Translations under genes and position numbers: made by a program
Notes under the pieces: model-generated
The model's input: the letters and a program-made list of their open reading frames with translations, nothing else
Database searches by the model: none
What the model was told of the DNA's origin: nothing
In this document: positions 10,273 through 26,185 of the stretch, one piece after another
Layout: each line of letters starts with the position of its first letter
Numbering within the stretch: position 1 is the stretch's first letter
Source of the DNA: a virus
Taxonomy: Duplodnaviria; Caudoviricetes
DNA: 33,786 bases
Virus record (IMG/VR): IMGVR_UViG_3300031519_000106
Coordinates: 1 to 33,786 of that record
Reading direction: 5' to 3' (one strand)

Positions 10273-13200
10273 ATGAGTTTTGTTATTAGGCCAGTCAAAA
10301 AAGTTGTAAAGAAAGCTGTAGATATAGTTGAAGACGTTGTTGATGATGTTGTTGACGTAATAGAAGATGCTGCCGATTGGGTTGTAGATGAAATTGTTGA
10401 TCCTATTGTGGATATGGGTCAGGATATAATTAAATACGCTAGCGATAATCCTTTGGAAACGTTAGCTAAAATGGCGGCGTATGCTACCGGCCAAGTATGG
10501 ATGATACCCTTAATAGACGGAGCTGCAGTAGCAGCAAAAGGCGGAGACCTTGGAGACATAGTTAAAGCCGCTGCAATATCTTACGCAGGTGCTAAAGTAG
10601 GTGGTACAGTATCTAAGTTTGTTGACCCTTCAATAGCTAACGCAGGATTTAATTCAACAGTATCTGCAGCTATATCTGGTGGTACTAAATCTGCTGCCAC
10701 TGCTCTGGTGTATGGACAAGACCCATTAAAAGCCTTTGTTACTGGAGGTGTTAATGCCGGTGTAGGTGCATTCTTAGGTGAGATAGATACAAAACTAAGC
10801 AATACAATAGAAGGTAACTTAGATGCTAGTGGCAACCCTATTGTGTCTGGGTGGGAAAATCTACAAGATGGCGTTAAAGATAGCATAACCACATCATTAT
10901 CTGCTGAATTAGCGGGAGGTAATATATCTGCAAATAGTATAAGTAGTATAGTCGCTAAATATACTGGCGTAGCAGATACTATGACTAACTTTTTAGCTGA
11001 AAACACGTTACTAGATGCAACTCAAGCTATGCAAATAACCTCTGCGTTAACGAGTGCAGCTACAACTGCTTTAGCTGGAAACCCAGAAATGTCTGGTGAA
11101 GCGTTTTTCAACAAATTTAACGAATACGGTATGGAAGAACTAAAAGCTATGGCTGATAAGCCTGTTAATAAAGCTATAGATAGCGTGACAGGTGCATCTG
11201 AGAAAACGCAAAAGGCCGCCACTGTTTTGAACGAAGCTATGTCTGGTGCGGCAAACGCTGCCGAAGGGTTTAATGGGGTACGAGAAGAACTTAACGGCAA
11301 GATTCAAGAACAAGAACGGCTTAAAACCGTATACAATAATGCAGTAGACGCTCACAACGCCAACCCTTCAGATACTACAGCTAACGCCGCAAACGCAGCT
11401 TCTGCAACATATAATGAGTACGTTAATACATTAAACAAAGATTACAATGACACCTATAAACCACAAATGGACGCGTACCAAAAAGAGTACAATAAGTGGA
11501 GTCCACAGATTGCAGACTTAGAAACTGAGTATGCAGACCAGTCTCAGTATTTAATGCAAGACATTGATACTCTAAACGCAGATATGAAACCTGTGTATGC
11601 CGGTGTAACCAAAGCCGCAGCTTTAGCACTACGCCCGGGAATTGACGAAGTTTCCTATAGAGAACTAAACAACCTTGAAGTTGGTGATGATATATACGCG
11701 CACTATTTGGCAAACCAAAAAGAAGTAGACAATGTTATAGCCACGAGTGCAGTCACAGAATACAACAATAGGTATAAAGAAGGAGCTATAACAGTAACGG
11801 AATTACCTCCGGCAGCTAGGTTTAAAGGTGATAGAGACCCTACTATCCCTTACGTTGGTCGTGGTGGAGACCCTGCTAATTACGGGTTAACAGAAAAAGA
11901 TATAAAAAAATACAAATTAAAAACTGGAGCTAAAGACGCTTGGTACAATCTTGTGCAAGGTACACAAGAGATGGCAGGTTACACTGTTGGAGGGTTTGGT
12001 CGTTTTGTAGATGAGTTGACTGAAAGTATAGTAGATTCTTTTGGTGTAAACTTATCAGAAGCTAACGACATTGCTTATCAACAGTACGCTATCTATTACG
12101 ACCCCAACCTAACTAGCGAAGAAAAAAATCAAGCAATGGCTAAAAGCATGGAAAACTATGCTACTGCTGTAGACAAAGCTTACGCAGAAGACGGTGCAGA
12201 TATAACATTTGCACGAGATACTTTTACCGACCCTATGATGAACACGCTTTTAGCGGCAAGTGATGCAACAAGCGAAAAAATATCTCCAGAGATGCAAGTT
12301 AGACAGTATAACGCTTTACCTGCACCAGATACTACATGGGAACAACTTATATCAGGTAAAGCAAAAGACCGTTTAGGTCGTCCGTATGGGTCTGATCCTG
12401 TAGCTACGCTTATGTCTGGAGTGCAAGAATTACCTGATTTTGCCGTAGATTTAGCTTTACTTGCGCTTACAAAAAATCCTAAGTTCGCGACTAGCCTAGT
12501 AATGAGTTCTAGTAGTGCAGAATCGTTTGAGGCAAACCAACAAGAAATTGAGGGTATGTTAGATAATGCGTTTGATTTCGGTCAGCTCCAAGAAACTCCA
12601 GAGTTTGCTAATTTAGTACGAGTGTACGGCGGCGACGAAGAAGCTGCATTAGAAAAGCTTAAAGATAAAAGCCAAGTTTATTCTGCACAAGCAGGGCTTG
12701 TCGGTGGTTTTGGCGATTTAATTTTAGCAAAAGTAGCCGGAGCCAGTGGAGGGGCTAGCACGTTAGCTACAGTCCCTACGTACCTTAAACCTATTATAAA
12801 AACAGGTACTGGTGGTCTTTCTGAAGGTATTACTGAAGCCGGTGAACAAGGACTTGTAAACGAAGCTGTTATAGAAGCAAACCTTGCAGACAATGTAACT
12901 ACTACTGGCGCTTCAGCTTTCCTACAAGGGTTTACTACAGGGGCGCAAAGCACCGCTACCTTTGAAGCAGTGTCTAAAGCCGTAAACATTGTGCGTTCCT
13001 ACACTACGTTCGATGAAACTGATGAGTCGCGTGCTATAGCGACAGCCGTGGCGTTGGAAGCCTATAAACAACGTGCTACTGTAATAGACACTCTCACAGA
13101 ATATGGAGCATTTGAGGGTGCAAATAATGCTATAGAAGTTCAAGAACGGCTAGCTATACTCGGGCTAGATAGCAAAATTGCGGTAGAAGAAATTGTTAAC

Positions 13201-15597
13201 GATATGTTTAACAACGAAGTCGTCACACGTGCAGAAGTAGAGGCCGCTGTAACTGCCGCAGAGCCAGAGTTTAATTTTACAGGTGATGTAGCTGAAAGTA
13301 TTTATGAACAGTTTTCTGGAGTTAGAGCTGATTCTAATTTAGCTACAGAAGTAGCAGGGTATGTAGACCCGTTATACACTACCTACGAAGAAGCCAAAGC
13401 CATAGCCTTAGCTGAAGGTGTTACATTAACTGATGAACAGGCTAGAAACAATACTGGTAGAGATGAAGACGCTGTACGGGATGAAATAGACCGCAACAAT
13501 ACTTCTCGTGAAGAAGCAGAACAATTTTTTATCGATTTTGGTTACACACCTACTGAAGCCGAATTGCAACAATATACAGGCGCAATTCCAGAAACAGAAC
13601 AACAAACAATAATTGGCGAGTACGTAGACCCCAGACAAACAACAGATGCTGAAGTTAGACAGTTCTTTGATGATCAAGGGTATAACCCAACCGACGAAGA
13701 AGTAGCCGCTATGGTAGGGCAGGGTGATGTAACCTTTGAAACTGACACAGAAACAAACGTATCTCCTTACGTAGACCCCAGACAAACAACAGAAACAGAA
13801 GCTAGGCAGTTTTTTGCTGACCAAGGATACACTCCAACAGATGCTGAAGTTGCTGCTAGGGTGGGTCAAGGCAACGAAGATTTTCAAACTACTACAGAGA
13901 CAGACACAGGTGAGTATGTAGACCCACGACAAGTAACTGAAGGGGAAGCTAGACAGTTTTTTGTAGATACTGGGTACACTCCAACAGATGAGGAAGTAGC
14001 TCAATTCGTGGCGCAAGCGGAAGAAAGCGCACAACAAACCGCCATAGGTGAGTATGTAGACCCACGTTTTGTGAATATAGATGAAGTCCGTGCGGTAGCG
14101 GAAGAAGAAGGGCTTACTTTTGCGGAAGCTATGGCTGACACGTACATAGGACAGAAAGACGAAGCTTCTACGTTAGCAGAAGCCCGTGCAGAATATGACC
14201 CTTTAGCAACTACACAAGAAGAAGCGGCGGCTTTTTTTGAAAGCACAGGGTATACTGCAGATGCACAAGAGATAGCAGACTTTGTAGCTTCTAAATCTGA
14301 AACTGTTCAAGAAAGTGCTATAGGCGCTTATGTAAACCCAAGACAAATGACCGAAACAGAAGTTAGAAGTTTCTTAGAAGATATAGGGTACAACGCAACA
14401 GATGAAGAAGTTCAACAGTTTATTGGGCAGGTAAACGATGACTCTTACGAAACAACGCAAGAAAGTGTTATAAGAGATTACACAGACCCGTTGTACACTG
14501 ACTCCGCAGAGGTTCGTGCGGCCTATGAAGAGCTTGGACTTGTAGACGTAACACAAGAAGACGTAGATCGTTTTGTTGGACAATACACTGAAGAAGATCA
14601 ATTAGCGGCTGTAAAAGAATACATACCTACTGCTACTTTTAATAGTATAAAAAGTGTTTTGGGTTCACCCGCAACAGAAGATGATCCCAATACAACAGAC
14701 ATTAACGAAGCTAAGGACGCTACAGGAATATACAAACTTGTAGATGATGCTGAAGCTAATGGCGCTACACGTGACGAAGCTTTACAAGATGCTATTGATA
14801 GGATTGGTAGCGACTTAGACATTACAGAAGAGCAACTACTAACAGAAATTGGCGTTACAAAAAACGAACTTAGTAATGATATTAATGCTGTAGCTAGTGA
14901 CGTAGCTGGACTTACTGGAGATGTAGCTGGACTTGGTGATGATATATCTAACCTTGAAGGTAACTTAGCTGCTTTAGGTGTTGATGTAGACACTGTGGCA
15001 GACCTTATTGGTAAACCTGCACGTGAAGTTACCGAAACTGATGTAGACTTTGTTATAGACCTAATAGCACAAGAAAACGTTAGTGCTGAGTTAACCGCGC
15101 AGTACGACGTTACCGGAGATGGTATCGTTGACATAAACGACCAAAATATGTTAATGGATAACTTACAGGGTAACGATGTTGCCTTTGCGGATACGTCTAT
15201 GTTTAACCCTGCAACAGGGCTGTACTTGCAACAAGAGCAAGATACACAAGCTACTATGGATGCTATCACTGATTTAAATAGTACAATCACTACTAATATA
15301 AACACTCAAGAACGGCGTAGAGAAATAGCAGAAGCTAAGGATATATTAAATCAAATGAGTGCTATGCAGCAAGTAAGTGTAAAAACACCAGACACTATGA
15401 ATATTGATTATTTGTATGATTTTAACAGTATTTTTGCTAACCCTAGTCAAGAAGCTTTGTTTGGAAGCCCGTATGGAGCTAATAGACAACCTGCTAACAC
15501 TCCAATGCAACCATTAAACCGTGCAAGTGGTTTTGCAGAGGGTGGACAAGTAGAGGATGAAAATGATATGTTACTAAGAATACTAGGAGATATGTAA
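10273..15597 (+). CDS. Very large acidic internal virion/ejection-type protein with tandem ~48-aa repeats
   Basis: 1774 aa; Gly/Ala-rich N-terminal helices, coiled coil, YVDP repeats, DVTGDGIVDIND loop, terminal FAEGG motif; lies between tail and other ejection genes. Confidence 0.72.
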   Translation: MSFVIRPVKKVVKKAVDIVEDVVDDVVDVIEDAADWVVDEIVDPIVDMGQDIIKYASDNPLETLAKMAAYATGQVWMIPLIDGAAVAAKGGDLGDIVKAAAISYAGAKVGGTVSKFVDPSIANAGFNSTVSAAISGGTKSAATALVYGQDPLKAFVTGGVNAGVGAFLGEIDTKLSNTIEGNLDASGNPIVSGWENLQDGVKDSITTSLSAELAGGNISANSISSIVAKYTGVADTMTNFLAENTLLDATQAMQITSALTSAATTALAGNPEMSGEAFFNKFNEYGMEELKAMADKPVNKAIDSVTGASEKTQKAATVLNEAMSGAANAAEGFNGVREELNGKIQEQERLKTVYNNAVDAHNANPSDTTANAANAASATYNEYVNTLNKDYNDTYKPQMDAYQKEYNKWSPQIADLETEYADQSQYLMQDIDTLNADMKPVYAGVTKAAALALRPGIDEVSYRELNNLEVGDDIYAHYLANQKEVDNVIATSAVTEYNNRYKEGAITVTELPPAARFKGDRDPTIPYVGRGGDPANYGLTEKDIKKYKLKTGAKDAWYNLVQGTQEMAGYTVGGFGRFVDELTESIVDSFGVNLSEANDIAYQQYAIYYDPNLTSEEKNQAMAKSMENYATAVDKAYAEDGADITFARDTFTDPMMNTLLAASDATSEKISPEMQVRQYNALPAPDTTWEQLISGKAKDRLGRPYGSDPVATLMSGVQELPDFAVDLALLALTKNPKFATSLVMSSSSAESFEANQQEIEGMLDNAFDFGQLQETPEFANLVRVYGGDEEAALEKLKDKSQVYSAQAGLVGGFGDLILAKVAGASGGASTLATVPTYLKPIIKTGTGGLSEGITEAGEQGLVNEAVIEANLADNVTTTGASAFLQGFTTGAQSTATFEAVSKAVNIVRSYTTFDETDESRAIATAVALEAYKQRATVIDTLTEYGAFEGANNAIEVQERLAILGLDSKIAVEEIVNDMFNNEVVTRAEVEAAVTAAEPEFNFTGDVAESIYEQFSGVRADSNLATEVAGYVDPLYTTYEEAKAIALAEGVTLTDEQARNNTGRDEDAVRDEIDRNNTSREEAEQFFIDFGYTPTEAELQQYTGAIPETEQQTIIGEYVDPRQTTDAEVRQFFDDQGYNPTDEEVAAMVGQGDVTFETDTETNVSPYVDPRQTTETEARQFFADQGYTPTDAEVAARVGQGNEDFQTTTETDTGEYVDPRQVTEGEARQFFVDTGYTPTDEEVAQFVAQAEESAQQTAIGEYVDPRFVNIDEVRAVAEEEGLTFAEAMADTYIGQKDEASTLAEARAEYDPLATTQEEAAAFFESTGYTADAQEIADFVASKSETVQESAIGAYVNPRQMTETEVRSFLEDIGYNATDEEVQQFIGQVNDDSYETTQESVIRDYTDPLYTDSAEVRAAYEELGLVDVTQEDVDRFVGQYTEEDQLAAVKEYIPTATFNSIKSVLGSPATEDDPNTTDINEAKDATGIYKLVDDAEANGATRDEALQDAIDRIGSDLDITEEQLLTEIGVTKNELSNDINAVASDVAGLTGDVAGLGDDISNLEGNLAALGVDVDTVADLIGKPAREVTETDVDFVIDLIAQENVSAELTAQYDVTGDGIVDINDQNMLMDNLQGNDVAFADTSMFNPATGLYLQQEQDTQATMDAITDLNSTITTNINTQERRREIAEAKDILNQMSAMQQVSVKTPDTMNIDYLYDFNSIFANPSQEALFGSPYGANRQPANTPMQPLNRASGFAEGGQVEDENDMLLRILGDM
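13357..14620 (+). repeat. About 9 coding tandem repeats of 138-150 nt (YVDPRQxTxxExRQFFxDxGYxPTDxEV)
   Basis: tacgtagaccccagacaaacaacaga at 13621 and 13768; ggtgagtatgtagacccacg at 13909 and 14047; the protein repeats align by eye. Confidence 0.9.
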
Positions 15598-19428: not shown

Positions 19429-22400
19429 ATGCCCACATACGAACTTAATACTGCTAAAGGGCCAATTTACGTCGAAGGCCCACCTGCTGCTACCAAAGAA
19501 CAGATAATAGCTATATACAACAGTAGTATACAAACAGCTACTGACAACCGTGTAAATCAATTTGAAAATACACTTAACCAAAATTTTGAAGATCGAACTG
19601 CTGCAGCTTTAGAAACTGCAAAGGCTAGAAAAGCAACTATTGGTGATTACTTAGGAGAAATACCTAAAGGTCTTGTTAGTGGAGCGTCAAGTATGCTCGA
19701 ATCAGGTGCCTTGGGCCTTGCAGCTATACTACCTGAAGAAGCAGAAAATGTTGTGCGTGGTGGTATTAAATCTGTAGGTAAGGCTGTACAAGACTATGTT
19801 CCCGCAGATTTTAACCTTGGGTCTACGTTACAAAAAAGTATACCGCGTAGTGTAAGTGAAGCAACAGGTTCTTTTTTAGGACTTGCAGGTACGTCTATGA
19901 TAAACCCTTTAGCAGGTGTGACGTTAGCCGTATCCGCTGGTGCAGGTGAGGCAAGCGAACGTGCTAGAGAAGACGGCGCTTCGTTAGAAGATCGTAATTT
20001 AGCGGCATTGTTAGGTACAATTCCGGGAGCATTAGAGTTACTACCTATCAAATTCTTGTCGGTTATAAACAAAGCGCAAAAACAAAACTTTACTGACGCT
20101 TTAGTGCGTATTGTAGAACAAACGGGTATTGAGGGAGCGCAGGAAGCAGTATCTTCCATAGCTCAAAACCTTATTGCTCGCGAAGTTTACAAACCAGAGC
20201 AAAGTTTAACGGAAGGTACGGCAGAAGAAGCCGCGCTTGGTGGTAGTGTTGGTGCAATAATACAGTCTACATTAGAACTAATAGCCCCTAGAAAACGTGG
20301 TGGTAAAAGTAGCACAGACTCAGAAACTTTAGCAATTGAAGATATGCGTGATAAACGTATTGAAGATCAACGCCAAGGTTTAGGGTCACTACAAATTGAA
20401 GATCAACGCGTCTCACAAGCTAGAGCTGCAATAGGTGAAGCTTTAGATACAGACGGTGCTGTGTCCCTTGAAAAAATGCAGAGTATTGTAACTGATAGTG
20501 GTATACCTTTTGCAGAACTCGAGGGCGTTGTAGCTGAAGAAATGGGCAAACGTGGTAGCGACTTAGCTCAACGTGCAAAAGCAGAACTTGATGCAGAAGA
20601 GGAACTAAAAAACCGTTTGCAAATTGAAGGGCCAGAAAGCCTAGGTTTGACTTCTGATGACGATGGTAACATACTTACACGAGACCAAAAAATTCAACAA
20701 ACTGAAGCTGGTAGAGTAGAAACCAAAGAAGCCGAAAATGTTCGTATGGAAGCTCTTAGAAATGAGGCTAACCCAAAAACAGATGACTCAATTGATAAAA
20801 CTAAAGCAAAAGTAAAATCGCAGTACCAAATAAACCCAATTGTAGAGTTTAATGTAAAAAAAGATTTAGCAGGGCAAGCCAAACAACTAGACGCTCCAGT
20901 ATTAAAAGGAGGAGTTAATGAACAGACTACAGAAATTAAGCCAGACGCAAGTAGAGACGGCGTTCAACCTCCTAGCGAAGATGTGGTCAACGCCAACAAC
21001 ATTGACCTTGCTGGAAATGCCGATACCAAAAAAGGTGCCGGAGGAATTAAATCACCTGCAGGTGGCGGATTGGGAAGCACTCGCGTGGTCTCTGGACTGC
21101 CTGATGGAACAGAGGGAGCAAAACCAACTGCATTAGAAGCCGCAGGAGTTAGACTTGTAGAGACATCAGTACCTAACGAACAATATCTTGCAGATAAGAA
21201 CAAAGCCGCAGCTAAGAACCGAAAGACTGCAAAGAAAGATACTTACGAAAGTAACATAGGAAGACCTGCAACAGTTTCGGCATACTTTGAAGATGCTGAT
21301 GGTAACCGTACTGTCAATTTAAACCCTGAGATACTGGCAAACGTAAAGGGTGCATTAGGTGAAGAGGCTACACGCGGTACAGGTGTGAAAGCAGATAGAC
21401 TACGTAAGAGTATAGAAAAAGATGGGTACGACCCGAAGCTAGGCGCTATACTGGTTGAAGTACGTGAAGATGGTACTCCATTTATTGTTGAAGGTAATAA
21501 TAGGCTCGCCGAAGCTATTAGTAGTGGTAGAGAAAGTATACCTGTTGAGATAAAATATATTCGTGGCGGAGAAAAAGCTAAAGGTATCTTAGACCCTATG
21601 GAAGTAGGGATAGAGATGTACATAGAAGAAAAGTTACGTGAACCTAAACCAAAAGCTAAACCCTTTAACCGTAACGCTGTAGGTAGTGGTACTAATATTA
21701 AAGGTGCCGCTAAAGCTACCATTCCTACGGGGGTAAAAGGTGTAGCTAGCAAAAAAGCAGTTGATCCAAAGAAAACCGAAGCGGCGCAAGTAGCAAGGCT
21801 GTACGACGAAGAAACTCCCGATGCTGTTAAGAAAATTTTTGGCGCTAGCAAAACAACTAATCCACTAAGTGAACCAGACAATAAGAAAATAAAAGACAAA
21901 ATTTTGCAAGGTGCTACTAAAAGCGACAAGAGCAAAAAAGAAGATGTTCCTGTAATTGCATACTTACGAGCTTTCTCTAACCCGTTTGATGGTATAGAAA
22001 TGGCGTTGTTTGACAAAGTAAACGCTACTCCAATCGCTAAACAAGCCGCTACCTATAAAGATAAAGCAGGTAACCCAGTTAAAGATACAGATGTTGCCTC
22101 CAAGGCAGACGTAGAGGCACGCCGAGGTATGGGTGGAGTTGCTTCTAAAAAGGGAGAACTATCTTCCGCAGATCGTACGATTGCATGGGCACGTGCCAAC
22201 CTGAGCAAAGAAGCTAATGTTAAAATAAGCAAACGCCTCCAACAATTAGAAGATAACCAAAAGAATACTATGGTGTTTGAAGGTGGGCCTGATCGTGTGG
22301 TTGCATCACAGGCGGCAGGGTTATTAAACGTACGTAAAAATTTAGAATCTCTGGTACTATCAAACTATACCGACCCAATGGAGTTGGTAAAAGCTTACCC

Positions 22401-25400
22401 CGACATATACCCAAGCAAAGCCGCAGTTGAAAAAGCGATATTTGACGACCCATCATTTGGTATAAACGTTCAACTTGGTTTAAACATAGGCGCAGTTGTG
22501 GGGTTAGACGTTCCAATTAATCCTGCAGTTGAGACCGCAGTTAACGAAGGTGACCTAGGCGCGGTGCTAACTATTATAGCAGACACAAATCCCGTAAAAC
22601 AAATACGTCAGTTGGCTGAAGCATACGCTAAATTAGTAGGCAGTACAAAAATTGTCATTAAGAAAGACCTCAAAGCCGATGATGGACGTCCCGTTGCAGG
22701 TTTGTTTGACCCTAAAACAAATACAATAAGTTTAAACAAAGAAGCTGGTATCAACACGCACACAATAATGCACGAAATGAGTCACGCTGTAGCAAGTGCT
22801 GACATAGCCAACCCAGAAAGTAGTGCAGGTCAACAGTTTAACAAACTATTTAATAATGTAAAAGAATACTTAGGTACTGCATATGGAGCAAAAGATGCGC
22901 AAGAGTTTTTAGCAGAAGCGCAAAGCAACCCAGAGTTCCGCGCTGATCTTGCTAGTATAAATATCAAAGGTGAAAAAGTTACTGCGTTGCAACGGTACTA
23001 CAACATCATGCAAAACATATTAAGTCGTTATGTGCCGTTTATACAATCACGAAACATAACCTTACTGCAAGAAGTGGACAGCCTAGTAGATGCCTTGTTA
23101 GCACCTGCTCCAAAATATCGTAACGCTAATCAAATGGCCATGTCTTCTACAGTTGATGGGGTAAAAAGTTTTGCTAAAAATGTTATAGGAAAAACACAGC
23201 AGTCCGTTAACAAAGGTAGTCGCAAACAATGGGGCTACGATGCGGCAGACTTTATGAGCAAAGCAGGGTCTCAAGGTAAAGGTCTACTTATGAAGCTAAC
23301 AGCTATGCAGGGGTTAGGTGACATTGCTGAAAGCGTAGGTCTAGGTAAATTGGGGTACAAGTTAGACGATCTACTTAGTCGGCAACGTGGTGGGATACAA
23401 ACAGCAAACAAAAGACTTCAAACTAAAGTAGAAAGTATCTTAAAAACATTAGAACAAAGCTCACCTGAAAAAACAAGAAAAGTAACAGCCGCGCTTGATG
23501 ATGTTATATACAACACTGAGTATGGTGCTACTATATTTCAAGTTGACCCTTTAAAAAGCGAACTTGATTACGTAAACAAAAAAACTGGTGCGCCTATATT
23601 TGATACTTCAGGTAACAACTTACAAGCTATATGGAAAGCGCAACGAGCTAGCTGGAACGCTATGGGTACAGATGGTCAAAAAGCTTATAAAGATATGCAG
23701 TCAGTATACCGAGCGTCGTATAACAGGCTTAAAGATGTGATCTTTGGGCAAATTGATAATTTAGTTGGAGATAAAAATTCAGCTAATAAACTTAAAAAAG
23801 ATATTTTTTCGCGTATGTTTAAACAAAGTACGTTGGATGTTTACTTCCCATTAATGCGTGAAGGGGATTACGTCTTACGTTTCAATGCAAAAAATCCTAA
23901 ATCAGAGCGTGAAAAAACTACTTTAATTACTTACACTACTAAGACTGAAAGAGACGAAGCAGAAAAGTTTTACAAAAAGACTGGAGATTACATAGACTTT
24001 AAAACTGAAGATACAGGCGTAACTGCAAGTATGTTTAAAAGCGGCGGTGCAGACTTAGGCTTTGCTACTGAGACACTTAACATATTAGATAAAGCTAAAA
24101 CAAAAGAAGGGGACGCGATCCCTATCGAAGTTAAAGATCAAATTATGCGTTTGTTTGTAAACTCTCTACCGGAAACTTCTTTTGCTAAATCATTACAGAA
24201 ACGTAAAGGTACTCCGGGATATATGCAAGATTCTGTTTACGCCCTAAAAGAAAAAGGAGCTAGCCTTGCAAGTCAAACGGCAAAGTTAGAGTACGCGGCA
24301 AAACTACGTATGTATGAACAAGAATTGCGTGACGCTAAACCATTGGCAATTCCGCAAGCTAAGAGTTTAGTAGGTAAAGGAACTAAAAAACTATCGTCTT
24401 CTTTTGATGAAGTACGTAACGAGTTACTAAAACGTGCAGAGTTTGGGCGACAAGGGGCGAAAAACCAAACAGTAGAAGGTATTGCACGTAGACTTAACCA
24501 GATGGCTTTTATGTACACTATTGGTTTTAACACTTCATCTGCATTAGTTAACCTATCACAAATCCCATTGTTTGTAGCTCCATACTTAGGTGGGCAGTAC
24601 GGGTATGCTGAAACAACTAAAGCTATTTCTAATGCGTACGGTAACGTTAACTTTGGCGGTAAGCGTGGAGGTAAAACTAACTCTATATTAAATTACTACG
24701 ACATTTCTGATGATGGAACATTCACACTTAAAAAAGGTTTGGACTTACCCGCAGGTAAAGAAGCTGAGTTAAAACGTATGACTTTACTTGTAAAGACCGC
24801 TTCAGAACGTGGACTATTAGGTCAAAGTTTTCTTGCAGAAGCTATGGGTTTAAATGAAGCTAGCCCCTCTAAAAAAGGTGGTAAATTAGGAAATGCAATG
24901 GATAACGCATCCGTACTATCTGCATGGCTATTTAATCACGGCGAACAACTAAACAGACAAGTAACGCTTATGGCGTCATTTAACCTAGCCTTGGATGCTC
25001 AAACTGGTACTAAAAATATAGAACAAGCAGTACAAGACGCTATTTACAACACACAAAAAACTAACGGTGGTACATTCTTAGAGACAGCTCCTAGCTTACT
25101 GAACACAGGTGTTGGGCGTGTTGCAGGTATGTATAAAAGCTACGGACTGCAAATGTACTACGTGATGTTCCAAACTGCAAAAGTTGCGTTCGATAGTGAC
25201 AAAGGTAAATTGTTTGGTAAACAAGGTTCTATTGAACGCAAAACCGCGTGGAAACAACTTATCGGTATGCACGGAAGTGCATTGTTCTTTGCAGGTATAC
25301 AAGGGCTACCGCTATACGGAGCTGTACGTTTAATGGTTAACTTGTTTATGTTAGACGACGAAGAAGAAGATTTCGACACTATTGTAAGGCAGTACGTAGG

Positions 25401-26094
25401 TGAGGGTTGGTACAAAGGCGCGGTAAACCAGATGACAGGTATGGACGTTGCAAGTCGTATGGCTTTAACTGGACTTCTTATACAAGAAAATAGATATAAT
25501 AACGACCCATCGTTAGAAGAGTCAATAGGGTTCTACCTAGGTGGCCCTGCACTTAGTGTTGCAAACAGGCTGTACCGTGGAGGTACAGATTTATTTGAGG
25601 GTAACATTGAACGTGGTATAGAGAGTATATTACCTGCAGGTATTGCAAATGCGTGGCGTGCGTCGCCCCTTGGACGTTACCAAACAGAAGGTGTTAAAAC
25701 CCGTAGAGGTGATTTTATATATGATGACATAACTGGCGGTGAACTTGCAGGTTTATTCTTTGGCATACAGCCAACGGAGTTGACGTTTCGACAAGAGCGA
25801 AACAATATCACTAAAGGTATAGACATCGCTGTAGGCAAAAAACGTTCAAAACTTTCTAAAAAATTATACATGGCTATGCGTGTAGGTGATTTCCCTGAAC
25901 AAATAAAAATTAGAAAAGAGATGCAAAAGTTTAGCGCAAGACACCCAGAAGCAAAAATAGATGGCCCTTACTTAGAACGTTCTTTAAAGAAACACAGAGA
26001 GACATCAAAGCTTATGGCGAAGTACAACGGTATTACTTTAAGCCCTACGTACAGAAAAACGCTTGAAGAGTTCCGTGAAGGCTATGACAAATAA
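19429..26094 (+). CDS. Giant polyvalent internal virion protein (ParB-like domain, zincin HExxH metallopeptidase-like domain, helical C-terminal region)
   Basis: 2221 aa; LRKSIEKDGY...ILV...VEGNNRL...IPV (~21390-21560); GLFDPKTNTISL...HEMSH (22771-22785)...EFLAEAQSNPEF; last gene of the late operon. Confidence 0.8.
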   Translation: MPTYELNTAKGPIYVEGPPAATKEQIIAIYNSSIQTATDNRVNQFENTLNQNFEDRTAAALETAKARKATIGDYLGEIPKGLVSGASSMLESGALGLAAILPEEAENVVRGGIKSVGKAVQDYVPADFNLGSTLQKSIPRSVSEATGSFLGLAGTSMINPLAGVTLAVSAGAGEASERAREDGASLEDRNLAALLGTIPGALELLPIKFLSVINKAQKQNFTDALVRIVEQTGIEGAQEAVSSIAQNLIAREVYKPEQSLTEGTAEEAALGGSVGAIIQSTLELIAPRKRGGKSSTDSETLAIEDMRDKRIEDQRQGLGSLQIEDQRVSQARAAIGEALDTDGAVSLEKMQSIVTDSGIPFAELEGVVAEEMGKRGSDLAQRAKAELDAEEELKNRLQIEGPESLGLTSDDDGNILTRDQKIQQTEAGRVETKEAENVRMEALRNEANPKTDDSIDKTKAKVKSQYQINPIVEFNVKKDLAGQAKQLDAPVLKGGVNEQTTEIKPDASRDGVQPPSEDVVNANNIDLAGNADTKKGAGGIKSPAGGGLGSTRVVSGLPDGTEGAKPTALEAAGVRLVETSVPNEQYLADKNKAAAKNRKTAKKDTYESNIGRPATVSAYFEDADGNRTVNLNPEILANVKGALGEEATRGTGVKADRLRKSIEKDGYDPKLGAILVEVREDGTPFIVEGNNRLAEAISSGRESIPVEIKYIRGGEKAKGILDPMEVGIEMYIEEKLREPKPKAKPFNRNAVGSGTNIKGAAKATIPTGVKGVASKKAVDPKKTEAAQVARLYDEETPDAVKKIFGASKTTNPLSEPDNKKIKDKILQGATKSDKSKKEDVPVIAYLRAFSNPFDGIEMALFDKVNATPIAKQAATYKDKAGNPVKDTDVASKADVEARRGMGGVASKKGELSSADRTIAWARANLSKEANVKISKRLQQLEDNQKNTMVFEGGPDRVVASQAAGLLNVRKNLESLVLSNYTDPMELVKAYPDIYPSKAAVEKAIFDDPSFGINVQLGLNIGAVVGLDVPINPAVETAVNEGDLGAVLTIIADTNPVKQIRQLAEAYAKLVGSTKIVIKKDLKADDGRPVAGLFDPKTNTISLNKEAGINTHTIMHEMSHAVASADIANPESSAGQQFNKLFNNVKEYLGTAYGAKDAQEFLAEAQSNPEFRADLASINIKGEKVTALQRYYNIMQNILSRYVPFIQSRNITLLQEVDSLVDALLAPAPKYRNANQMAMSSTVDGVKSFAKNVIGKTQQSVNKGSRKQWGYDAADFMSKAGSQGKGLLMKLTAMQGLGDIAESVGLGKLGYKLDDLLSRQRGGIQTANKRLQTKVESILKTLEQSSPEKTRKVTAALDDVIYNTEYGATIFQVDPLKSELDYVNKKTGAPIFDTSGNNLQAIWKAQRASWNAMGTDGQKAYKDMQSVYRASYNRLKDVIFGQIDNLVGDKNSANKLKKDIFSRMFKQSTLDVYFPLMREGDYVLRFNAKNPKSEREKTTLITYTTKTERDEAEKFYKKTGDYIDFKTEDTGVTASMFKSGGADLGFATETLNILDKAKTKEGDAIPIEVKDQIMRLFVNSLPETSFAKSLQKRKGTPGYMQDSVYALKEKGASLASQTAKLEYAAKLRMYEQELRDAKPLAIPQAKSLVGKGTKKLSSSFDEVRNELLKRAEFGRQGAKNQTVEGIARRLNQMAFMYTIGFNTSSALVNLSQIPLFVAPYLGGQYGYAETTKAISNAYGNVNFGGKRGGKTNSILNYYDISDDGTFTLKKGLDLPAGKEAELKRMTLLVKTASERGLLGQSFLAEAMGLNEASPSKKGGKLGNAMDNASVLSAWLFNHGEQLNRQVTLMASFNLALDAQTGTKNIEQAVQDAIYNTQKTNGGTFLETAPSLLNTGVGRVAGMYKSYGLQMYYVMFQTAKVAFDSDKGKLFGKQGSIERKTAWKQLIGMHGSALFFAGIQGLPLYGAVRLMVNLFMLDDEEEDFDTIVRQYVGEGWYKGAVNQMTGMDVASRMALTGLLIQENRYNNDPSLEESIGFYLGGPALSVANRLYRGGTDLFEGNIERGIESILPAGIANAWRASPLGRYQTEGVKTRRGDFIYDDITGGELAGLFFGIQPTELTFRQERNNITKGIDIAVGKKRSKLSKKLYMAMRVGDFPEQIKIRKEMQKFSARHPEAKIDGPYLERSLKKHRETSKLMAKYNGITLSPTYRKTLEEFREGYDK
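20918..21136 (+). CDS. Probable overprinted 72-aa gene nested in the +1 frame of the giant protein
   Basis: AAAAGGAGG-AGTTA-ATG translation start; local GC rise; protein-like amphipathic helices, whereas the main frame here is a low-complexity linker. Confidence 0.6.
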   Translation: MNRLQKLSQTQVETAFNLLAKMWSTPTTLTLLEMPIPKKVPEELNHLQVADWEALAWSLDCLMEQREQNQLH

Positions 26095-26136
26095 AAAACC
26101 CCCGACGTTGCAGTGCGAAACCTAGCCAGTCGGGGG
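26093..26136 (-). terminator. Intrinsic terminator for the minus-strand replication arm, at the convergence of the two arms
   Basis: Minus strand reads CCCCCGAC-N22-GTCGGGGG-TTTTTT (stem arms 26099-26106 and 26129-26136, A-run 26093-26098). Confidence 0.7.
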
Positions 26137-26185
26137 AGTTCAGAACGGAGAACGACAAGTTTTTCTGCTTGTCACACGTAAGTTA

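Follow-up and report, generated by a model that had tools for sequence, protein, structure and literature searches.

The locus described here raises the question of whether a short open reading frame (ORF), lying out of frame inside a giant virion gene, is a gene in its own right and, if it is, what its product does. We analyzed the whole stretch of 33,786 nucleotides (hereafter, the window) of a Caudoviricetes virus record that is 55% complete (IMGVR_UViG_3300031519_000106). The original prediction proposed a real, overprinted protein that annotation would miss, perhaps a chaperone or inhibitor of the adjacent effector domains. The features needed for the argument are listed below.

19429..26094, + strand: giant gene, 2221 aa, annotated as large polyvalent or DarB-like; predicted ejection protein
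20904..20912, + strand: Shine-Dalgarno (SD) sequence AAAAGGAGG of the nested gene, coding for Lys-Gly-Gly in the giant frame
20917..21138, + strand: Gly/Pro/Asp/Ser/Thr-rich linker of the giant frame, approximately residues 497-570 (from pN/pS, synonymous divergence, and composition)
20918..21136, + strand: nested gene, 72 aa, read in the +1 frame relative to the giant gene; product predicted to fold as a helical hairpin
21122..21136, + strand: C-terminal tail N-Q-L-H and stop codon of the nested gene; family pattern S-x-[LIV]-H/Q
21391..21576, + strand: ParB-like domain of the giant protein, variable cargo (PHROG and ESM feature match)
22771..22785, + strand: HExxH motif (HEMSH), zincin-like metallopeptidase region of the giant protein
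23524..23805, + strand: LPD39 (large polyvalent protein associated domain 39) of the giant protein

The giant gene and its genomic setting

The giant gene is the last of a rightward cluster of tail, endolysin, and structural genes, with the endolysin gene 12 kb upstream, and genes for primase, single-strand binding protein, helicase, exonuclease, and polymerase converge on it from the right. The gene upstream of it has a weak likeness to a DNA ejection protein. LPD39 was identified at E 4.3e-6 (27 bits, at the Pfam cut-off) in a scan of the separate piece and at 23.7 bits in a scan of the full-length protein, the HExxH region matched Tox-MPTase4 weakly (E 0.008, below cut-off), and the C-terminal third resembles proteins annotated as PLxRFG- or DarB-like. 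The gene fits a phage polyvalent protein, being large, multidomain, and placed beside virion genes, with LPD39 and a metallopeptidase region. Phage polyvalent proteins are encoded in late-gene regions, and packaging has been proposed for them (PMC5512222); judging from that study and from the position of the gene, the giant protein would be packaged and injected.

The closest cultured primase and helicase were those of Pseudomonas phage Rollin and Rhizobium phage RHph_TM3_14A, and the capsid of a near-complete relative, G012, was 65-70% identical to the capsids of HTVC023P, HTVC027P, DSL-LC04, and MinM2. Genomes carrying such giants are approximately 58-65 kb long. G012 also encodes a GroES-like co-chaperonin in its head cluster (L284:10578-10985), as does HTVC023P. 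In the window, the intergenic stretch at which the two gene clusters converge (26094-26161) had abundant contig coverage in each of the four RNA runs described below and is possibly a conserved terminator or small RNA common to relatives.

Signals and composition of the nested ORF

The 72-aa ORF was recovered at the position and with the translation originally given, in the +1 frame of the giant gene. Its strong SD sequence was likewise borne out, with AAAAGGAGG spaced 5 nt from the ATG; its AGGAGG is 1 of 4 on the plus strand, and the full hexamer is missing from all 22 of the other listed plus-strand starts. The GC content over 20941-21120, estimated by hand at about 54%, measured 53.9%, the highest of any 180-nt window of the giant gene (best outside the nested ORF, 49.4%). 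The flanks had been put at 32-40%: one measured 35%, within that range, and the downstream one 42%, slightly above it. As had been described for the window, the giant frame over the overlap is a Gly/Pro/Asp linker, and it is enriched in all three residues across 106 giants (15.0%, 8.8%, and 9.8%, respectively, vs. 7.7%, 4.4%, and 6.1% outside).

We shuffled the synonymous codons of the giant gene 2000 times. Any ATG-started ORF of at least 72 aa in the +1 or +2 frame appeared in 82 shuffles, the nested frame stayed open at 20918-21136 in 4, and an off-frame ORF of at least 72 aa with an SD sequence arose in 1. Consensus sites for an internal promoter were at chance level (18 vs. 15 +/- 3.9), as were -10-like hexamers upstream of the nested gene (28 of 99 vs. 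560 of 1980 controls). The nested ORF was covered by contigs of four metatranscriptomes from one study; these contigs are blind to strand, level, and DNA carry-over, and the four runs were themselves found using this DNA stretch.

Homologues are nested in giant genes across a phage group

Searches with the peptide, its alignments, and parts of the giant protein gave 124 sequences including the window, 119 of which, representing 61 distinct sequences, matched the family profile once each. All 59 complete distinct copies were nested in the +1 frame of an open giant frame, and the other two lay at contig ends. The five sequences that the profile missed were three C-terminal-only loci holding 1,130-1,249 residues of the giant frame, one locus with only the last 24 codons, at the edge (L018), and one spurious hit (L076), a prokaryote-genome match of 20 residues inside a 476-aa ORF at HMM E 0.12. 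No prophage carrying the nested gene was found among the prokaryote genomes searched.

As a check on ascertainment, we searched with the C-terminal domain of the giant protein alone, taking the best 80 of 403 and the best 80 of 219 matches; this search was seeded from carriers, and some bias remains. It yielded 158 loci, of which 73 were partial and were set aside, leaving 85 with a 5'-complete giant (80 distinct). Among these matches, 70 of the 80 distinct giants had the nested gene, in every case in the +1 frame, and 10 did not (L189, L262, L264, L272, L274-L277, L281, and L282), the latter scattered over at least 3 positions in a tree of the C-terminal domain built by a quick method. Carriers span both deep C-terminal subtypes of the giant, and the nested gene always lies upstream of the HExxH region, at giant residues of approximately 290-860. 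The C-terminal domain of L189, which lacks the gene, is almost identical to that of the carrier L201, so loss is possible by swapping the front of the giant gene.

After exclusion of truncated, startless, and over-long rows, the pooled set comprised 106 distinct proteins of 57-88 aa, 22-92% identical to that of the window (median 34%). An SD match of at least 4 nt with a start ahead of the conserved core was identified in 97 of 102 homologues, compared with 735 of 4733 controls (15.5%). A profile search of 1.84 billion representatives returned 310 clusters at E <=0.001; 4 of the 150 clusters listed were taken as spurious, being longer than 1,000 aa with many short matched stretches. One distant match, ending in Gln, was followed, and all 18 of its loci (15 distinct) were nested in the +1 frame of giant frames of 2,000-2,970 codons. 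The expectation that homologues would also be nested in giant virion genes thus held for every homologue with enough flank, always in the +1 frame, and the SD-led start and open frame were conserved among relatives.

No free-standing copy was found in the loci examined; among the database clusters, context was seen for one. Two near-complete genomes of one lacking lineage contained no copy anywhere (controls, 5 of 5 detected). Among cultured phages, the window's protein had no match and another member gave chance matches only, and no family copy was identified in Rollin, RHph_TM3_14A, HTVC023P, DSL-LC04, MinM2, or CRP-901, with positive controls detected.

Other off-frame ORFs occur in these giants. 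Five loci of one close clade (L012-L015 and L021) share a second +1 ORF of 61-62 codons at giant residues of approximately 1380-1440, with an ATG and a weak SD sequence, which may be a by-product of giant-frame conservation. In the giant of RHph_TM3_14A (L124), a +1 ORF of up to 109 codons at residues 1626-1735 ends in SMLH; its GGAG-led ATG gives 74 aa without a family profile match. A second giant ORF in the window (10273-15597, 1774 aa) had neither a family match nor an SD-led nested ORF passing the filter.

Selection acts on the nested frame

The frame-specific comparison of substitutions, which the original prediction had proposed, gave a pN/pS of 0.135 for the nested frame and 4.07 for the giant frame over 25 pairs sharing no sequence (from uncorrected proportions), indicating purifying selection in the nested frame and not in the giant frame. 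Synonymous divergence of the giant frame was 0.03-0.08 within the ORF, compared with 0.19-0.48 in flanking bins (36 pairs). At the nested position, the giant frame has no conserved residues of its own; the linker here only needs to stay open and is a spacer. Judged from sequence comparison, the small gene is almost certainly real and independent, with its own SD sequence and start, and kept by selection across a phage group. The prediction of a real nested protein missed by annotation is therefore strongly supported by conservation, nesting, and selection, with a putative product.

The term "overprinted," in the strict sense that the small gene is the younger one, is not established because the giant frame is the passenger here. 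Giants lacking the nested gene, including those of Rollin and RHph_TM3_14A, were not alignable at the nested position, and an older small gene may have been engulfed by a growing giant gene. From its distribution, the nested gene is old and usually kept, yet some lineages have a giant that does without it.

The small protein and its fixed tail

AlphaFold2 predicted a helical hairpin with helices at residues 9-24 and 49-70 (pLDDT 78 with 34 sequences and 76 with 115 sequences), in agreement with the two helices originally proposed. Glu13, Leu44, Leu47, and Trp52 are invariant, and Leu7, Ala15, Pro41, and Leu62 are nearly so. The 19-residue hydropathy never exceeded 1.25 in the 106 members, giving no membrane helix, a lipobox ([LVI][ASTVI][GAS]C) was identified within the first 35 residues of none of them, and the proteins are mostly acidic (median net charge -4).

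The C-terminal end is the most regular part of the family. A terminal His was identified in 105 of 106 members, against 1 among 692 long ORFs in these loci; 99 of 106 end in [ILV]-H, and the distance from Trp to the end is 20 in all 106, while the inter-helix loop ranges from 13 to 30. Among the 134 full-tail database matches listed, the last residue was His in 111, Gln in 20, and Asn in 3, and in the distant subfamily, 16 of 18 loci had a terminal Gln.

The window's protein had no Pfam or PHROG match, and three other members reached only E 0.05 or worse against PHROGs. NCBIfam gave single-member matches only (E 0.04-0.1, 115 members), a PDB profile search one chance match (E 0.58), the ESM Atlas no usable match, and Foldseek against BFVD and PDB nothing at E <=0.001. 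The best VIA-align Z, 5.2, was to homeodomain- or Myb-like three-helix bundles; values of this size are typical of common helical arrangements, and the match was not read as pointing to DNA binding. A metal site formed by Glu13, His46, and His72 was rejected, the terminal residue being Gln or Asn in 23 of the 134 matches listed.

The small protein is independent of the neighbouring domains

We analyzed the giant proteins around the nested gene to examine the proposed tie to adjacent effector domains. The ParB-like domain next to the nested gene in the window is weak but plausible: it was supported by PHROG (ParB-like, E 7e-4) and by an ESM feature match of 0.93 to a ParB_N cluster, and it had no Pfam ParB match and no PDB sequence match. 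Only 5 of 106 giants had a ParB-like neighbour, and no co-variation was seen between the small protein and the domains of the giant, which speaks against a chaperone or inhibitor of the adjacent effector domains. Segments downstream of the nested gene fell into 48 clusters among 100 giants; an ART-PolyVal domain was identified in 4 of the 48 representatives (3 above cut-off) and an HATPase domain in one. Co-occurrence and co-variation with one toxin domain, as expected of a cognate immunity protein or antitoxin, were likewise not observed.

Identity of the small proteins was weakly correlated with that of five parts of the giant (Spearman rho 0.14-0.29; 820 pairs, 41 full giants). Small proteins of three loci (L002, L003, and L081) are 83-89% identical to that of the window in giants barely related to the window's (21% at the N-terminus, 27% at the C-terminus, or 13% in the downstream segment), and across small-protein matches of 83-89%, the N-terminal, downstream, or C-terminal giant parts spanned 13-30% identity. 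In close small-protein pairs, the 60 giant residues downstream were unrelated (<35%) in 21 of 36 pairs, compared with 7 of 33 for the 60 upstream residues (Fisher p 0.003). Downstream residues being unrelated more often than upstream ones, the nested gene marks the 5' edge of a swappable cassette. The switch to unrelated cargo directly past the nested stop was observed at 21136 in the window and at the equivalent position in L001, L081, and further loci. This pattern is suggestive of a recombination boundary, and we infer that the conserved DNA of the nested gene would serve as the crossover site. In one locus (L118:1291-3750), the giant frame stops 98 residues past the nested gene, in a second, different ParB-like domain; this early stop near the contig end is either an assembly error or a broken gene.

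A possible role in host proteolysis

Beyond the existence of the gene, its pattern of selection, and its independence from the neighbouring domains, the account of its function given here is what we infer. The fixed tail probably binds a partner that is conserved and is not part of the variable effector cargo; this partner is possibly the host protease Lon. In the reading that we tentatively put forward as the best of those considered, though less probable than not, the small protein would be late and short-lived and would dock on host Lon by its tail, acting as a decoy or regulator. It would be made from the late mRNA common to the ejection proteins as a soluble, helical, short-lived product with a free C-terminal tail, and its S-x-[LIV]-H(Q) end would enter the pocket of the Lon N-terminal domain that accepts the terminal His of LarA. 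Once docked, the small protein could serve as a decoy or regulator-substrate that retunes Lon during synthesis of large, partly unfolded virion proteins, when host antitoxins could be degraded.

Ends with His after an aliphatic residue are experimentally tested degrons for Lon, -TLH, -TVH, and -SLH among them (PMC11986505). LarA binds and activates Lon through its terminal-His end (PMC10665427), the pocket that it occupies in the Lon N-terminal domain is reported to be conserved in several bacteria (PMC11882793), and phage proteins T7 gp4.5 and T4 PinA target Lon (PMC10286901). The strict x-[LI]-[LIV]-H motif was found in only 3 of the 106 members; the tested degrons -TLH, -TVH, and -SLH fail the strict [LI][LIV]H motif too (PMC11986505). 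The same study ranked Val and Pro next after His and found Ser at -4 to be disfavoured (PMC11986505), and Ser is common at -4 in the family tails. The likeness to a Lon degron is weakened by the distant subfamily, which ends in Gln. A complex prediction with the N-terminal domain of Escherichia coli Lon scored 0.20 against a mark of 0.32, which counts neither for nor against docking. The fixed distance from helix to end fits a structural docking site equally well as a degron, and a degron explains turnover and not the role of the conserved helical surface (Glu13, Pro41, Leu44, Leu47, and Trp52).

Alternative explanations

We weighed the Lon reading against explanations of the ORF that require no separate function and against other functions of its product. 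GC-rich linkers are depleted in off-frame stops, and the 82 of 2000 shuffles with some long off-frame ATG ORF would agree with a chance open frame; this explanation has next to no probability and is refuted by comparison, given the frame-specific purifying selection and the conservation of start, SD sequence, and stop down to 22% identity. A +1 ribosomal frameshift from the giant frame, producing a shortened giant protein that ends in the peptide, is highly improbable. The nested ORF has the same strand and the +1 frame that this would need, SD-like sequences are able to stimulate frameshifts, and two database proteins (P0064 and P0117) carry the second half of the peptide behind giant-like N-termini, probably through assembly indels. 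Against it stand the SD-led start before the conserved core (97 of 102 vs. 15.5% of controls), closure of the +1 frame by a stop lying only 4 codons upstream in the closest cases, and the lack of a common slippery site by eye in the printed upstream sequences. It is also quite unlikely that the product is the cognate inhibitor of, or immunity protein for, the effector domain beside it, which is ParB-like in the window: the ParB-like domain does adjoin in this phage, and downstream ADP-ribosyltransferase cargo occurs in other giants (in 4 of the 48 representatives, with 3 scoring above cut-off), but the presence of the ParB-like neighbour in just 5 of 106 giants, the 48 downstream clusters among 100 giants, and the unrelated downstream 60 residues (<35%) in 21 of 36 close small-protein pairs largely refute it.

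Two functional alternatives carry more weight. The small protein could be an assembly helper that binds a conserved part of the giant or another virion protein, such as a neighbouring ejection protein or the portal, for folding or head loading, which we regard as a doubtful but real possibility. Nesting would guarantee joint inheritance and expression, no copy was identified outside a giant gene in any locus examined, the placement upstream of the HExxH region (giant residues approximately 290-860) is constant, the gene lies in the late cluster, and both deep C-terminal subtypes of the giant carry it. However, near-identical small proteins pair with N- or C-terminal giant parts of 21-30% identity, 40 of 172 pairs with similar C-termini (>=55%) have small proteins less than 45% identical, 10 of 80 giants among the matches listed lack the gene, and two near-complete genomes are without any copy. 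It is rather unlikely, though less so than an inhibitor of the neighbouring domain, that the product is a late host-directed effector with a target other than Lon, such as transcription, division, lysis timing, or a defence protein, its tail being a binding motif or turnover signal. Such an effector would agree with the independence from giant-gene domains, the dispensability in some lineages, the soluble, mostly acidic character (median net charge -4), and location within genes of a class that serves in phage-host conflict (PMC5512222), whereas no family or fold match indicates a target and a pN/pS of 0.135 would be less typical of an arms-race interface.

Comparison with known systems

Embedded two-component spanins, such as lambda Rz1 within Rz, are an established case of nesting (PMC6139136). 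As with Rz1 and Rz, the small gene lies entirely within a late gene on the same strand, in its +1 frame; unlike Rz1, its product has no lipobox and no membrane helix and is not Pro-rich, and the enclosing gene encodes a polyvalent protein of 2,000-3,000 aa rather than an i-spanin, the two products not co-varying. An embedded o-spanin of the Rz1 type was accordingly rejected for the window, in which there is no lipobox, the giant is a 2221-aa LPD39 protein, and the endolysin is 12 kb upstream. The nested genes of phiX174 (E in D, B in A) are on the same strand with their own starts, in a 5-kb genome under size pressure. Unlike these, whose discovery is cited in PMC8227390, the genomes here are approximately 58-65 kb, and the giant frame is essentially unconstrained at the overlap.

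With SulA, Smg, and LarA, the small protein shares a free aliphatic-His C-terminus after a helix and short tail (PMC11986505, PMC10665427, and PMC11882793), and with LarA also its small size, LarA differing in being alpha/beta. There was no sequence or fold match to these proteins, the strict motif was found in 3 of 106 members, and one subfamily ends in Gln. T4 PinA and T7 gp4.5 are small phage proteins directed against a host AAA+ protease (PMC10286901), and lambda CIII is described as both inhibitor and substrate of FtsH (PMC1838920); the likeness to all three is a functional analogy only. No homology to PinA, gp4.5, or CIII was detected in PHROGs, Pfam, or NCBIfam. The genes for these three proteins are free-standing.

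The giants themselves resemble the phage polyvalent proteins already described in their size, virion neighbours, HExxH, LPD39, and swappable ParB-like or ART-PolyVal cargo (PMC5512222). The word "overlapping" is absent from the main text of that paper, and the nested gene is an additional layer; open-access full text yielded no paper describing a gene nested within one for a polyvalent or ejection protein. Same-strand nested phage genes are known; the novelty here lies in a protein family, so far undescribed and spread across a phage group, whose hidden frame bears the constraint in place of the annotated one.

Significance

The finding adds an undescribed protein family (310 database clusters, including a few spurious repeat proteins) among aquatic relatives of the HTVC023P-type phages. 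It reverses the usual picture, with the hidden frame conserved and the annotated "gene" merely a spacer there. Where a linker of a giant phage protein appears to be under positive selection, as with the pN/pS of approximately 4 here, the signal can therefore be the shadow of a hidden gene. The fullest interpretation, in which a widespread but undescribed phage family of Lon decoys or regulators is encoded by an older gene across which the giant has grown and whose slowly evolving DNA, read in two frames, acts as a 5' recombination anchor for exchange of the effector cassette, is unlikely to hold in all its parts. If the tail does dock on Lon, the family would represent a new phage handle on host proteolysis.
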